From Neodothiora populina (Eukaryota), in assembly GCF_041146345.1 (NCBI RefSeq), contig NW_027191409.1, positions 992,001 through 1,056,000 of the forward strand: a stretch of 64,000 nucleotides of DNA. The letters run 5' to 3'. The notes under the pieces were generated by a model. That model was not told the DNA's origin. It did not search any database and was given only the letters and a program-made list of their open reading frames with translations. This document shows positions 7,239-14,852 of this stretch, one piece after another; the stretch's first letter is position 1, and each line of letters begins with the position of its first letter. Made by a program: the position numbers and the translations under genes.

Positions 7239-10200
7239 ATGTCATCCGAGGATGCGACCTTGAAGAGCTCGACGGGCTCGGGATCAGGGTCCGCGTCCGC
7301 ATCTGCCTCAGTCCGCTCCTCAGGCAGACAATCGAGACAGCAGCAGTCCGCTCCCCAGCAGCTGTCGACAATCGAGAAGAGCGTGACACATCTGCTTGTG
7401 GCCACGAAGCAACTCCTGGAAACCCTGACTCACTGGTCCAGAGGTACTGCGAGCGAGGCTGAGGTGTCCGACGTCTATGTGCGCCTGGGCTATGAGTTCA
7501 ACATCGCATGTCGCGCCTTCAACAGCATCGGCGTCGACACCAATGACCTCGGCCCTGTGCCCGATCTGCTGAGGTCGATACTCGAGGAGACTCTGAGCCA
7601 GGAAGCCTCGCAGCCCAGTCTCGACCGCTTCCTTCCACGCATCCGCGACATCATCATCAACCTGCTACATGGGCTGAAGAAAAAGCAACAGCGTCTTCGT
7701 CAACGCGCAAACAGCGGCACCGCCCAGACGTCGAGACAAGCAAGCACGGCGAGCAATGTCAGCCTCGACAGCGCAATACTCGGCAATGACGACAGCAACA
7801 GCAGTGCGCGACCGTCGAGTGGCCGCTCCTACGCCGCAAGAGGCGGAAGCGGCGACCTCAATGGTCCAGATCTGCCGCCGAGGTCTACCTCTGTGCAAGG
7901 AAACAGGTCTTCTCCCAGACGAGAGGGCTTCAGTCCGAGCAACAGCATGCACCGCACGCGAGACTCCCATCGCGACACGTACGCCTCGGATACATCCTCC
8001 ATGTCCAGTAATGCTATGCAGTCTATCCCTGTCATAGCTCCATACCCGCAAGAAGACACCATGCCCGGCCAGCCGCTGTCCTCGTCTCCTCCGTCTTCAT
8101 CTCATGATTCGGTCCAAGCACCTACGAACTCGACAACAGCGGCCCCTCTGCCCATGCCATCCGAACCGCCGCACAAGTACTACTCCGAAGAGTCGCTGCC
8201 TCCTCCACCTCCACCGCCGAAACAACAGGATGCTCTGGCCGCACTTCAAAGAGGCGGGGAACTGGAACGCCGCGCATCGCGAAGGTTTTCCGCCTATCAA
8301 ATATCCAAGCATCTCGGGTCTAGCAATGGCGTGCCCGTGATCCCGCCTGCTCAGAATTCGCCCGTCCCCAATAGAGGTAGGGACACGCGCGAGTCCATGA
8401 ATGCCGTGCGCACAAGGAGCATATACCAGCATGGAAGACAAAAGTCAAATCGCATCAACACCACCGACTCTCCTCGGAGAGAAGGAGGACCCGCAGACAG
8501 GAGGATCTCTGAAGAGCCCGGCGATGGCAGGATGGCTCCGCCCCCAGCTGAGTTGGGCAGTCCGATGGCGAAGACGCCTGATGACAAACTCGGAGCCTAT
8601 CCATTCCCCACTACGGAGGCCAAGTCGCAAGATGACATGGGCGCTACCGTCAATGGTCCAATTGATATACCGACCATTGAAGAGAGCCCCGAGCCACGTC
8701 AAACAAACGGCATACAGCGCCACAAGTCGACCTCGTCGCGAGACTCCAGCAAACGACAAACGATACAGCAATCCACATCGCAGCCTCAATTCGTCCCTGA
8801 AGGTTCGCCTCAGCCTGGGAAGGAGTTGACGCTCTTCCTGCAGTACAAGAGCAAAATCAAGAAATTCGTTCTGCCAGACGGTGGGGATCTGAGTATCCCG
8901 CGTCTGCAACTGGCTTTTATTGAGAAATTTGCATGGAACACGCACAGCAATGGAAACGATCTGCCTGAAATCTATCTACAAGACCCCGTATCGGGCGTCC
9001 GTCACGAACTGGAAGACCTCAGCGACATCAAGGACCGATCCGTATTGGTGCTCAACATCGAACAGCTCGACGAAGTGAAGCGCCACTTTGATGACGGTCT
9101 TGGTGGCATTCGTCATCTCATAGAGGATTTGCGCACCTCGGTCATCGATCAACAGACTGCCCTGCAGCGAGTTTCCGACAAACAGCAGGAGTCTGCGAAA
9201 GAGATTGCGAGCATCGCAGCTGCTCCGCGTGCTACAGCAGGATCGGGACCACGCACCTCCGGCAGCATCAAGTCTGCCTCGGCTGTAGAGAGTCAATTGA
9301 GCGAAGTTCAGTCATTGCGCCGTGATTTGGCCGTGGTCAAGCAGACTTACAAGTCCTTTGTGGATGACATCAACACATCAATGTCCCACATACGGACAAA
9401 GGCGGCGTCTGTCAAGAGCGTGGCTGAACAGGCAAGTCTGCCTTCGATGAGTGTCGACGCTGGTCGCGCCTATGTCAACTCAGGCAAGGAAGGTCTCGAA
9501 AACGAGAGTCAGAAGCTCGTTGATCGAGTAGACGACCTGCAGGACATCGTCGAGGATCTCCGGAAGGATGTTGTGACCCGCGGTGTGCGACCCGTGCCCC
9601 ACCAACTCGATGCCGTGTCTAGCGACATCGCAAGTGCCAACAAGGCTCTTCGTAAGATGCAAGAATACCTCAAGCGCGAAAAGCCGGTGTGGTCCAAGAT
9701 TTGGGAGAAGGAGCTACAAGTGGTATGCGACGACAGGGAACTCCTCACCATGCAAGAGGAACTGTGCATGGATCTCGAGGACGATCTGGCCAAAGCGGCC
9801 GCCACGTACGCGCTGGTCGAAGAAGCGACAAGACAGCAAAACGCACAGAACCCGTCCAACAACAAGGGCGGTGTCGCAGGCACGCGTGTGCTTTCGCGCA
9901 CGCTGATGCCCATCGCACTCGATCAAGGCGCCGACCCTCACAAAGCCAAAGACGGCGTCCTGGGCGAGGTGCGCGCCTTGCAGCCGAACCACGAATCCAG
10001 ACTCGAAGCCATCGAGCGAGCGGAGAGAGCACGCAAGAGAGAGCTAGAGAGCAGACAAGGCGGCGAATTCCAGAAGGAGCTTGGTAGTTTTGTCGAAGAA
10101 GGCAGACTCAAGAAAACCGGTGGTGTGGACGAGATCGAAAGACAAAGGAAACTCAAAGATGAGAGGATCCAGAAGGAAGTGTGGGAGAGACAACAAGCGC

Positions 10201-10262
10201 GAGAGCGGGAACGAGCAGCTAAAGCTGCGGCTAAGGCACAAGAGGAGGCAGCAGCCAAGACA

Positions 10263-10295
<33 letters not shown>

Positions 10296-10745
10296 GAACA
10301 AAACGGCGTCGAGGGGGCTGCAGAAGAGTCGTCCGCGCCAGCAGAAGCTGTGGCTGAAGACAGCGCTGAGCCAGCATCGACTGTCGAACCGACGCAAGAA
10401 GCAGAAGCCACGACAGCTGCCATTCCCACAATCGAAGAGCCTACACCAGAGACCGACGTCTCCGTTTCTGACGGCAACGAAGCACAACCCGCCACAGAAG
10501 AAGCAGCAACAACAGCTCCAGAACCATCAGAACCATCCGACGAAGCAAAAACAGAATCAACCGCAGTAACATCACACGAAAAAGCAGAAGCACAAGCAGC
10601 AAACCACCACGACAGCAAACTCGACGTTCTCGTCCCGACAGGAACCTTGAGCGTCGAGGATATTGTCGGGAGCGGTGGGGTGCCTAGTCCCGAGATGGAG
10701 TTCAGCGATGCCAAGGAGATGCCGCCTACACCTTCCGCTGAGTGA
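7239..10745 (+). CDS. BUD6: Actin-interacting protein Aip3/Bud6 (polarisome component)
   Basis: 1168-aa uninterrupted ORF. Conserved N-terminus (IEKSVTHLLVATKQLLETLT...VSDVYVRLG) and AIP3 domain (LFLQYKSKIKK...VDDLQDIVEDLRKDVVTRGVRP...EKPVWSKIWEKELQVVC). Confidence 0.93.
10264..10290 (+). repeat. (CAG)9 trinucleotide repeat encoding poly-Ala in the BUD6 C-terminal tail
   Basis: Read directly from the sequence. Confidence 0.9.
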
Positions 10746-11589: not shown

Positions 11590-12880
11590 CTATTTCTTGG
11601 CCTCCTGTACCGCCTCATCGACACCCTCCTTGAGCGCCTTGATGGCAGTGTCAATGTCGCTTCTGTTCGGGTCCGTCACGCTGACACCCATGTGTCCGAA
11701 TCTGATATACTTGCTCGCAATCTGCTTGTGCAGACCACCAGCGAAGACAACGCCTTTTGCCATGAGCTTGGGCAAGACCTGGGGCGGGGTGATGCCCTCG
11801 GGCAGGTAGATAGCCGTCATGCCGTTTGCTTGGTTCTCGGGCTTGGAGGCGAGTTGTGAGAGACCGAGCGAGGCGACGGCGGATTTGACCTTTTGCGATG
11901 CGGCGCGGTGGGCCTCGAAGCGAGAGGACAGGGGTACCGAGGTGATTTGCGTGAGGGTGGTGTGCAAGGCGTGGATGAGCTGGGGAGAAGGAGTGGCGAA
12001 GTAGGATGGCTTGCCGGCTTCGTAGTTTTGCATGACTGTTTTGGGACGATTAGTCTTTAGACGTGCAAAGGGCAACACAGTGAAGAACACTCACTTGGCA
12101 ACCAGTTCTTCCATGAACCAAAGTATGAAGTAGGAGGAACCTTGCGGCTGTTGAAACGCTCGATGGCGCGGCCAGAGGCCATGACAATGCTCAGACCTGC
12201 TGGGCAGCCAATACCCTTCTGAGAAGCGGTCAAGACGCAGTCGAGTCCCCAGTTGTCGAACTGAATCTCTTCGGAACCGACACTGCACACGCCATCGACC
12301 ACGACAAGAGTCTCCGGGCTGACTCTGTGGACGAGCTTGCTGACGTGCTCAATCTCACTCAAGACACCAGTGGAAGTATCAACGTGTGTGATGGTGATGG
12401 CCTTGTAGTTCTTCTCCTTCAGCGCGGCCTCGACCTCGTCCAATTGCGGACGATCGCCAATGGGGGCCTTGAGCTGAGTGACCTTGATTCCGTAGGTCTC
12501 GAAACAATCGGCGAAGCTGTCGGCAAAGTATCCGGTGTGCAAGACAAGGACATCATCGCCGGGCTCGACAAGGTTGGAAGCGACCTGATCCCAGCCAAGA
12601 GTGCCGGATCCAGAGATGACAAAGGGTTGCGCCTTGGGATCCTCGGTCTGGAAGAGCTTCCTGAGCATCTTGAGAGTCTCGCTGAACGTCTTGACAAAAG
12701 GCATGCCGACGTGAGATTCACTATGGTAATTGCCACATGAGTACAGAGCTCGGGGATCAAAGACAACAAAAGGCAACGCTCGCTCTCTCACCTGTAGTGG
12801 CTCATGGACTGCAAGACCTGGTCATCGAACTCGATGGGTCCGGGAATGAGGAGAGCGGGGTGGGGTGCTTGGTTAGACAT
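11590..12880 (-). CDS. AGX1: Alanine--glyoxylate aminotransferase (class V PLP enzyme); a probable CUG-initiated extension starts at 13060
   Basis: Exons 12880-12792, 12720-12095, 12035-11590. Motifs: LLIPGPIEFDD, GSGTLGWD, THVDTSTGVL, VVDGVCS, the PLP-lysine motif TASQKGIGCPAG, and YIRFGHMG. Confidence 0.93.
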
Positions 12881-13937
12881 GGCGACGTTCTTTTCCTCTG
12901 GCTCGGCAGGTTGGAGGGTGGGAAGAGTAGTCGGTGGTGAGTAGGGAAGGTCGTCTGGTATACTCGACTGTCTCTCGGTGGAAAAGGGAGTGTTCAGTTC
13001 AAGTTGAAGTCTCTGGTCAAGATGTCTCGAAATGAGACTGAGTCTGTTTTGGGGCGCCAGCTTGAATGATGCAGCGATGTGGCGGGCAAACACCGACGAT
13101 CTGACCTTGAGCGGGGAAGTCTTGACTCTGACTACGGGTTGGACGATATCGGAAGACCGGAGGCGTTCTCCTGTATACACTGATACTGAGGATTTTTACT
13201 CAATAGTAACACCAATGACTGTCACAAGACAAGGAAGAGATCTGCGCTATCAGAAAGTGACTGCGGTGAATCTGATGATCAATTGATGGGGTGGGCTTGG
13301 GTGAATGAGTGGTTTGCCGGGATACAATTGCAGTTTGCGATGTTAGTCGATTCTTCAACTGTCTCCAAAAAAGGTCCCGCAATTTTTAGTGTCCGACGAT
13401 GCTGTGGAGAATCCAGCGTAGTGCACGCGTTTTGTGTGCCACTCTTTAAGTCCGACATTTGACTTTGGTTGGCAGCTCTGTCTGGGTGCAGTACGGAGTA
13501 CAGTATGCGTCTTCCGAAGCGTATATCGCGATACGATGTTGGTATTGATGGTCAGTAAAGACTGTAGGGCTAAAGTGTTTATTCCTCAGTGCCACACCCG
13601 TGTATAATCAGATTGGGCATCGGTATGACAAGCGTGTTCTTGTGTCGGACGAGTTCATAAGGTAAGGTACCTAGGTATGAGCCACTAACGGAGTTAGCAT
13701 CTGAGAGAGTGTTAGCAACAAGAGTGACTGAAGCATGCCCAGGTGGCTGCCTGAGGACTCTGACCCGCGCCTTCCTCACCGTCGCTCTCCAGCGCTCCTA
13801 CCTCAACTCACCCTAATAAGATACAAGTACCCTTTGCGCACGGGCCTCTCCGTCATCAGACGTCGCCAAACAAACTCGCGATTCCACGTCCTTGTCGAAA
13901 GAGTAGTGGGGAGCAGTGCAGAGAGCCATAACAAACA

Positions 13938-14852
13938 ATGACTTCAAGATTAGTGCTGGTCCTGGGAGACCTCTTCATCCCAGACAGAGCCATAGTGAGT
14001 GGTAGCGACTGCTCAATCCCCGTCCTTGACAGGATCCAGTTAGACTGACTCCAATTGACAGGACATACCAGCAAAGGTACAGCTCCTTCCAGCATGACAG
14101 ACGAATGCGCCGCATATAGACAGCCGAGGGAACACAATACTAAAGATATATACATCATGAACAGTTCAAGAAACTCCTCACCCCCGGCAAAATCGGCCAG
14201 ATCCTCTGTCTAGGCAACCTCACATCACCGAGCGTCTACAGCTTCCTGCGCACGCTTGCGCCCGACCTACAAATCGTCAAGGGCGACTATGACATTTCCC
14301 TATCAAGTTCCCTGCCCGCCGTCAATCCCAATGTGCCATACGCCGCCCCCACCGATGCTCCTCCCCAACCCACCGCTCTGTCCAAGGTAGTCACTCATGG
14401 CGGATTACGGATTGGATTCACACACGGCCACACCATCGTGCCACCGGGAGACCCAGACAGCCTGTTAATAGCTGCCAGACAGATGGACGTCGACGTGTTA
14501 TGCTGGGGCGGTACTTGCAAGTTCGAAGCATACGAGATGGAGGGCAAGTTCTTCATCAACCCGGGAAGTGCCACTGGCGCTGTGAGCTGGAATCACGATG
14601 TTGAGCTTGATTCCGAGGGCGAAATGGTGTCGTCGCCAAGTTTCGTCTTGATGGATGTGAGTATCATTGTCGAATATCATTTGGCTCAACTGCTTGTCCA
14701 TTGCATAACACATCTCCCCAATACTGACACGAATCGAAAAACAGGTCCAGGGCGATGTACTCGTACTTTATGTGTACCAGCTACGAAAGGATGCAAACGG
14801 TGTGGAGAATGTCGGAGTCGAGAAGGTCTCATTCCGTAAGCCTTCATCATAG
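13938..14852 (+). CDS. VPS29: Retromer subunit Vps29
   Basis: Spliced product [42 protein letters not shown]...GFTHGH...FFINPGSATGA...SFVLMD-VQGDVLVLYVYQL...VEKVSFRK. Includes a 15-nt exon at 14062-14076. Confidence 0.95.

Follow-up and report, generated by a model that had tools for sequence, protein, structure and literature searches.

In mammals, the compartment of alanine-glyoxylate aminotransferase (AGT; gene AGXT) is set by which N-terminus is made, with a role for alternative start sites, and the enzyme carries an N-terminal mitochondrial presequence together with a type 1 peroxisomal targeting signal (PTS1) at its C-terminus. The distribution of AGT between mitochondria and peroxisomes varies among mammals (review PMC3798809). 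In the fungus Ustilago maydis, 6-phosphogluconate dehydrogenase (Pgd1) has a cryptic peroxisomal targeting signal of type 2 (PTS2) in its leader, reached by non-AUG initiation (Kremp et al. 2020, PMC7214817). Dual-localized fungal proteins have also been described in which a leaky first start, either a weak AUG or a near-cognate codon, precedes a strong in-frame AUG, and these starts interchange (Wallace et al. 2020, PMC7049704). In Pezizomycotina, the key conserved context of a near-cognate start is A at -3 with G at +4 (Ivanov et al. 2017, PMC5487733). In Magnaporthe oryzae, appressoria depend for their function on AGT1, which is peroxisomal (Bhadauria et al. 2012, PMC3338719), and a peroxisomal AGT makes biological sense. 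Here we analyze the AGT (AGX1) gene in a 64,000-nucleotide stretch of Neodothiora populina (GCF_041146345.1, contig NW_027191409.1, positions 992,001 to 1,056,000; the window), for which a reading of the letters alone, the original prediction, had proposed a CUG-initiated extension bearing a PTS2. Comparison with relatives makes it likely that this single gene yields two proteins from one mRNA by leaky scanning, a CUG-initiated form with a PTS2 and an AUG-initiated form without a signal.

In the proposed mechanism, some scanning ribosomes would initiate at the CUG at 13060, in a near-optimal context of A(-3)/G(+4), to give a 446-aa form with the nonapeptide RLSLISRHL at residues 6-14; Pex7 would bind this form, which would be imported into peroxisomes. 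The majority of ribosomes would skip the CUG, cross 180 nt that are free of AUG in any frame and initiate at the AUG at 12880, giving a 386-aa form with no targeting signal. We infer that the mRNA includes the CUG and that initiation occurs there. The long form would be the minor one because non-AUG starts are generally weak; initiation at the non-AUG start of Pgd1 was measured at ~2% (PMC7214817). In this way the gene probably supplies AGT both to the peroxisome and to the rest of the cell. We refer to the CTG at 13060 as site 2, to the ATG at 12880 as site 3, and to a further upstream start seen in relatives as site 1. The features of the locus, all on the minus strand, are as follows.

11590..12880 (-): body of the AGT (class-V aminotransferase) gene, from the Pfam Aminotran_5 match and alignment of the spliced model.
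12880-12792, 12720-12095 and 12035-11590 (-): exons 1, 2 and 3, ending in the stop codon TAG at 11592-11590.
12791-12721 and 12094-12036 (-): the two introns, with GT...AG ends.
12878..12880 (-): main AUG (site 3), start of the 386-aa signal-free enzyme, from the sequence and the spliced model.
13058..13060 (-): proposed CUG start (site 2) in the context TTCAAG CTG GCG, from the sequence and the homologous codon in relatives.
12881..13060 (-): 60-codon N-terminal extension in the AGT frame, aligning with annotated N-termini of relatives.
13019..13045 (-): PTS2-type nonapeptide RLSLISRHL, residues 6-14 given the CUG start, from the sequence.
12971..12997 (-): second conserved motif, LNTPFSTER, kept in the relatives shown and lying outside the PTS2 consensus.
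12881..13455 (-): ATG-free leader of 575 nt, from a triplet count; the nearest upstream ATG is at 13458.
13196..13198 (-): in-frame TAA closing the upstream frame, from the sequence and in agreement with the open reading frame at 12788..13180.
13061..13123 (-): what is left of the stretch that separated site 2 from the lost site 1, from nucleotide alignment with the related locus L001.

The identity of the gene is well supported. PF00266 (Aminotran_5) matched exon 2 with an E value of 3.2e-21 in Pfam, and the spliced model holds a single, terminal stop and reads 386 aa from the ATG or 446 aa from the CTG. Against seven full-length relatives the model aligned at 67-78% identity over ~430 residues, the alignments beginning at extension residues 0-8, and relatives in the protein match list carry the source name alanine-glyoxylate transaminase. 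The C-terminus (...QEAKK) has no PTS1-like tripeptide of the S/A/C-K/R/H-L form quoted in PMC3338719. A Pfam search with the 100-aa upstream frame returned no family match.

Upstream of the ATG at 12880 the frame is open for 105 codons, to the TAA at 13198-13196, with no in-frame ATG. From 13455 to 12881, 575 nt in all, ATG is absent from every frame where ~6.8 would be expected by base composition, and triplets of the same composition occur 2 to 12 times each in this leader. Exactly 60 codons above the ATG lies the CTG at 13060-13058, with A at -3 and G at +4, from which the extension reads L-APQN-RLSLISRHL-DQRLQLELNTPFSTER. The original prediction had described an ATG-free frame of about 100 codons above the AGX1 start, a CTG in the ideal context TTCAAG CTG GCG 60 codons upstream, a PTS2-like RLSLISRHL at 13045-13019, a C-terminus (EAKK) without PTS1 and an AGT identity for the gene; read directly from the sequence, or in the last case from the domain match and the identity to relatives, each of these descriptions proved accurate. 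RNA folding lends no support to the CUG, since the 96 nt from it fold at -17.2 kcal/mol (z = -0.81; 36/200 shuffles fold as well), which is no unusual structure.

In an effort to follow the extension through relatives, a query of 129 residues (the upstream frame plus exon 1) was searched against proteins, and 229 with E <= 0.001 were found among 406 candidates; the protein counts that follow cover the best 120 of these 229. The exon-1 core LL[IV]PGP was present in 115 of the 120. Upstream of it, 94 of the 115 core-bearing proteins carry the strict motif R-[LVI]-x5-H-[LA] and 15 a variant ending in F, I or V, and the remaining six are truncated gene models whose N-terminus falls inside or past the motif. 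Among the matches listed, named sources include Aspergillus, Penicillium, Histoplasma, Aureobasidium, Hortaea, Parastagonospora and Alternaria, and further lichen fungi, Rhynchosporium, Diplocarpon, Coniochaeta, Geoglossum and others. We take these extension-bearing AGTs to be spread over several classes of Pezizomycotina, namely Eurotiomycetes, Dothideomycetes, Lecanoromycetes, Leotiomycetes and Sordariomycetes, together with Geoglossum.

Fourteen of the best 120 relatives lack an initial Met (P0002, P0020, P0022, P0027, P0028, P0040, P0051, P0061, P0071, P0074, P0084, P0092, P0099 and P0102). Several of these models are labeled 'partial' by NCBI and begin just above the PTS2, which fits annotation pipelines that found no AUG there.

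The same region was followed at the DNA level by scanning metagenome contigs with an alignment of the extension, which gave 587 pattern matches, of which 102 were confirmed and 80 loci returned, or 81 with the window. The motif is retained in 75 of the 81 (70 parsed automatically and five by inspection); two are cut by contig ends and four (L064, L071, L079 and L080) have a degenerate motif. The degenerate nonapeptides show a deletion, a one-residue insertion or a Pro at position 2, and the signal may have been lost in these lineages. With the motif kept in 75/81 loci, and in strict (94) or variant (15) form in the 115 core-bearing proteins, its retention is above chance.

Sequences with both the start-site pattern and an inner Met numbered 66 and were clustered at 90% nucleotide identity into 46 representatives. 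Across these, mean nucleotide diversity at codon positions 1, 2 and 3 of the PTS2 is 0.31, 0.15 and 0.60; third positions vary and residues stay fixed. On this pattern, the extension is coding and appears to be under purifying selection in the main frame. The inner start is likewise regular: a Met stands nine residues before LLIPGP in 42/46 representatives, and base -3 of the main AUG is A in 42/46 and G in 4/46, the window being among the four. L032, L034 and L036 are without the usual Met nine residues before LLIPGP, and their nearest inner Met stands ~17 residues before it.

We next consider the codon at site 2, which was located with a rule that uses amino acids only, taking, in the 17 residues before the motif, the M, L or V nearest to it that has A, S or P as the next residue; the codon was then read. 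In the 46 representatives this rule returned CTG 21 times, ATG 18, GTG five, CTT once and TTG once. In the CTT and TTG rows the rule picked the wrong codon: the homologous codon of L045 is a CTG, in AAG CTG GCG ten codons ahead of the motif, and L077 shares the ATG of its close relatives, sixteen codons ahead of it. After this correction by homology, the codon reads NTG in 46/46 representatives, with C as the first base in 22, A in 19 and G in five. Counts over all loci were CTG 32, ATG 21, GTG 8 and TTG 1 (n=62), and five more loci read by hand gave CTG, CTG, GTG, ATG and ATG. In the same sequences, CTG makes up 86/386 (22%) of other Leu codons and GTG 25/122 (20%) of other Val codons, and the three Leu positions of the PTS2 use all six Leu codons. 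Site 2 encodes Met, Leu or Val and is written only as NTG, which is therefore the pattern of a start codon; its variation by position is the reverse of the normal coding pattern in the adjacent PTS2 (0.31, 0.15, 0.60). A direct counterpart is seen in the Aureobasidium melanogenum protein P0004, which begins MAPQSRLSLISRHL with Met-1 at the position of the window's CTG, where the window reads (L)APQNRLSLISRHL.

A tree was built by quick search from the exon 1 core and exon 2 of 42 representatives. The window pairs with L001, which has CTG (support 98), beside a GTG locus and an ATG locus, and at least seven changes among ATG, CTG and GTG are required over the tree. Together these comparisons indicate that a predicted start codon at site 2 is conserved among relatives.

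If, instead, an AUG were supplied by a spliced-in upstream exon or an alternative transcript, the CUG would be an ordinary internal Leu codon. The AAG before the window's CTG could act as a 3' splice site, and some relatives' gene models add upstream ATG exons. An AG before the codon is not conserved, though, as the contexts include ACC, ACG, AAT, ATC, AAA and AAC, and the only nearby upstream ATG (13458) is followed by no canonical donor that we could see by reading the sequence. An internal Leu or Val also fits poorly with CTG or GTG in 26/28 of the non-AUG cases called by the rule, forms taken by 22% of Leu and 20% of Val codons elsewhere, and with ATG at exactly the site-2 codon in close relatives. 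We rejected this alternative as highly unlikely.

The sequence around site 2 depends on which codon occupies it. Non-AUG codons have A at -3 in 24/28 loci and G at +4 in 25/28, and base -3 of the AUG codons is A in five, C in five, G in four and T in four (n=18). With the two artefact rows dropped, A at -3 stands at 24/26 for non-AUG vs 5/18 for AUG sites (Fisher's test, p = 1.2e-5). This pairing, of a weak codon with strong surroundings and the reverse, is what selection on the leak rate would be expected to produce. Across the 46 loci, the stretch from site 2 to the main ATG contains eight ATGs in 8,394 nt vs ~75 expected by base composition, with 71 occurrences of AGT and 89 of GAT in the same nucleotides, and 40/46 loci have no ATG there at all. 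Above the motif, 22/28 non-AUG loci have no in-frame ATG from the upstream stop to the PTS2. The context pattern and the AUG desert are the signatures that leaky scanning would be predicted to leave.

These results bear on how far the original prediction can be carried beyond the window. It had proposed looking in Pezizomycotina for a conserved near-cognate codon and for an RLx5HL frame with synonymous-biased change, and it had invoked leaky scanning. The relatives agree on all three points: CTG, GTG or ATG occupies site 2 in 46/46 after the two artefacts are resolved, diversity in the frame is 0.31, 0.15 and 0.60 with Arg in six codons, and the non-AUG sites have the A(-3)/G(+4) context above an ATG-poor stretch leading to the main AUG.

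One could still ask whether the window itself holds only a decaying relic, an ancestral AUG having mutated to CUG, with the useful long form gone and the 386-aa enzyme alone of importance. The window is already without site 1 (see below), the motif is degenerate in some lineages, and non-AUG initiation can be as low as ~2% (PMC7214817). Decay is nonetheless difficult to reconcile with a PTS2 that is intact in both the window and L001 despite different Arg codons (AGA/CGT), with a CTG in the A(-3)/G(+4) context that is kept across many lineages with well-mixed synonymous sites, and with an ATG desert that has been maintained. We regard a relic as very unlikely.

The nonapeptide was compared with the PTS2 consensus (R/K)-(L/V/I)-x5-(H/Q)-(L/A), as quoted in PMC7214817, and RLSLISRHL fits it at all four defining positions. 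Arg fills position 1 (in six codons) and His position 8 (in two) in every one of the 46 representatives; residues I, F or M occur at position 5 and S, A or G at position 6. The variable positions are 3 (S, D, G, T, K or N), 4 (L, V or Q) and 7 (R, K or N). In L001 and the window, the Arg codon of the motif is AGA in one and CGT in the other, with the motif intact in both. RLSLISRHL closely resembles RLSQVTSHL, the Pex7-dependent signal of Histoplasma thiolase (PMC13343957). It falls at residues 6-14 only given the CUG start, and in the 24 proteins annotated with Met at site 2 it starts at residues ~5-15. From these likenesses, Pex7 binding and peroxisomal import of the motif are predicted. A second motif, LNTP[FY]SxER, is found 8-10 residues past the nonapeptide in the relatives shown.

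Above site 2, many relatives have a further candidate start. Within the interval 10-30 codons above site 2, 26/46 representatives have a CTG or GTG preceded by a purine at -3 and followed by G at +4; 11 others have an ATG, and base -3 is a pyrimidine for 13 of the 14 ATGs in the interval. Site 1 is thus present in 37/46 representatives, and nine of the 46, the window among them, have neither start in the interval. Loci with site 1 include L001, L016, L019-L022, L024, L025, L027, L028, L030, L039, L041, L043-L045, L047, L051-L053, L059-L062 and L065. For comparison, the linker from the motif to the main ATG, 2,072 codons in all, contained no strong-context CTG or GTG. The 25 residues above site 2 contain 196 basic and 25 acidic residues of 1,126 (e.g. 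LALRRLYPAI and LAAPRRLF), and the peptide past site 1 looks like a mitochondrial presequence.

In the window, AAG ACT TCC (13123-13115) aligns with AAG CTG GCT GCC of L001, so that the CTG of L001 is replaced by ACT. No strong-context NTG was found above site 2 in the window, where the only NTGs are two GTGs, at -40 and -11 codons, each flanked by T at both -3 and +4. By this alignment, the window's lineage has lost site 1. The original prediction had seen, as a much weaker idea, a presequence-like, R/S-rich stretch reaching back to a GTG at 13180. That idea fails in the window because the corresponding start has been lost; in the family it corresponds to a genuine feature, site 1, which is present in 37/46 representatives. 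We rejected both GTG 13180 and GTG 13093 as starts of a presequence form, each having T at -3 and T at +4 at a position that is not conserved. Two blocks of the leader are exactly identical between the window and L001, TCGGTGTTTGCCCGCCACATC and CTTCCGATATCGTC, at window positions ~13081-13101 and ~13141-13154 (-). The CTTCCGATATCGTC block is read in different frames in the two loci and so looks like a nucleotide-level element and not a coding one.

It is conceivable, if somewhat doubtful, that AGT in Pezizomycotina has three nested starts on one mRNA, with site 1, the PTS2 start and the main AUG sending the enzyme to mitochondria, peroxisomes and cytosol, respectively. At both upstream sites, free swaps between an AUG in weak context and a CUG or GUG in strong context would then keep the leak rate roughly constant, and lineages would tune the split by losing sites, as that of the window has done with site 1.

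The same upstream region raises the question of whether the extension could be translated from the CUG with RLSLISRHL...LNTPFSTER not a Pex7 signal at all, being part of a presequence or some other module that takes the long form elsewhere. A further start 10-30 codons above site 2 in 37/46 relatives, the basic-rich 25 residues above site 2 (196 basic and 25 acidic of 1,126) and a mitochondrial AGT in some mammals (PMC3798809) would suit such a destination, and LNTPFSTER, no part of a PTS2, equals the nonapeptide in conservation. What argues for Pex7 is the nonapeptide itself, which has the four PTS2 residues and keeps position 5 hydrophobic and position 6 small, and which is closely alike to a validated fungal PTS2, that of Histoplasma thiolase. 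Counted from the CUG, residues 6-14 are also the usual place of a PTS2, and the window and eight other representatives without the upstream start retain the motif. We therefore consider a destination other than the peroxisome unlikely.

Several observations weigh against two proteins made by leaky scanning, one of them peroxisomal. Six of the 28 non-AUG loci have a distant in-frame ATG 49-169 codons above the PTS2. The rows were chosen with a regular expression for R/K, L/I, H and L/F/I/V, and invariance at positions 1, 2, 8 and 9 is partly by construction; the independent figure is therefore the 75/81 loci that keep the motif. Well-supported branches of the quick tree force only two codon changes per state. 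The loci are related by descent, a problem that the matched Leu and Val codon control eases and does not remove. The degenerate motif in L064, L071, L079 and L080 indicates that the signal can be lost, and LNTPFSTER, equally conserved, is unexplained by a PTS2. Finally, the peroxisomal signal of Magnaporthe AGT1 was assigned to a putative C-terminal QKA and not to a PTS2 (PMC3338719).

The AGT gene lies between two neighbors on the opposite strand. A Bud6/Aip3 homologue occupies 7239-10745 (+), with matches to PF03915 (E 4e-156) and PF23153, and an open reading frame at 14333-14839 (+), divergent from the AGT gene, matches Metallophos_2 at E 1.4e-5, under the curated cut-off. Between the AGT start and the upstream neighbor, ~1.4 kb is left to hold a promoter and leader.

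We compared this arrangement with what has been published. The literature searched, with most subscription journals (e.g. those with fungal microbody proteomes) lying outside it, contained no account of a fungal AGT with a PTS2 or a non-AUG start, and the string RLSLISRHL occurred in 0 of its papers. The Pgd1 paper (PMC7214817) gave 0 matches for aminotransferase or glyoxylate, and 'peroxisom' has 0 occurrences in PMC7049704. Two supplementary texts of the Magnaporthe PEX7 paper, a paper with 65 putative PTS2 proteins in its Table S2, hold no aminotransferase, transaminase or glyoxylate entry, and the main text of the Histoplasma peroxisome-proteome paper has no AGT term. The mechanism class is already known, and PTS2-bearing N-termini are visible in some public gene models. 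Within that class, the AGT case has an unusually clear comparative signature.

The closest precedent is U. maydis Pgd1, in which a PTS2 likewise lies above the annotated AUG with no in-frame AUG before it and a motif conserved in relatives, and in which the minor, peroxisomal form comes from a near-cognate start and the main form from the AUG (PMC7214817). Pgd1 is a different enzyme from another phylum, and its start is a tandem AGG AUU ~20 codons upstream. AGT, in contrast, would use a single CUG in an optimal context 60 codons upstream; the codon is swapped for AUG or GUG across the subphylum, and a second start lies further upstream in many relatives. The dual-localized proteins of Wallace et al. 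(PMC7049704) share the architecture and the interchange of weak AUG with near-cognate codons, and they differ in that the signals are mitochondrial presequences and the proteins mainly aminoacyl-tRNA synthetases. Neurospora crassa cpc-1 (PMC5487733) also has a conserved non-AUG start with A at -3 and G at +4 and an extension under purifying selection, but it encodes a transcription factor with no targeting signal and an interplay with upstream open reading frames.

Mammalian AGT (AGXT) is the same enzyme; the fungal gene differs in its N-terminal PTS2, in the lack of a PTS1 in the window and in its non-AUG start. Magnaporthe AGT1 is a Pezizomycotina AGT for which a peroxisomal signal was observed experimentally (PMC3338719). 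It was studied as a protein of 385 aa and localized only via a C-terminal fragment, 340-385, ending in QKA; full-length fusions gave no signal, and an N-terminal PTS2 was not considered. The window's protein ends in AKK.

If the proposed mechanism is true, AGT would be a second non-AUG PTS2 form beside U. maydis Pgd1, the only one found in the literature searched. For Magnaporthe AGT1, a gene that rice-blast infection requires, it would add a targeting signal that had not come under consideration, and it suggests that peroxisomal removal of glyoxylate by AGT is general in filamentous ascomycetes. AGT gene models are at present inconsistent, starting at the inner AUG or at arbitrary upstream ATGs or being left partial, and a fixed rule could correct them. 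Compared with Pgd1, the AGT case would be far more widely conserved, with a swap among AUG, CUG and GUG and a compensating context that can be read from genomes alone.

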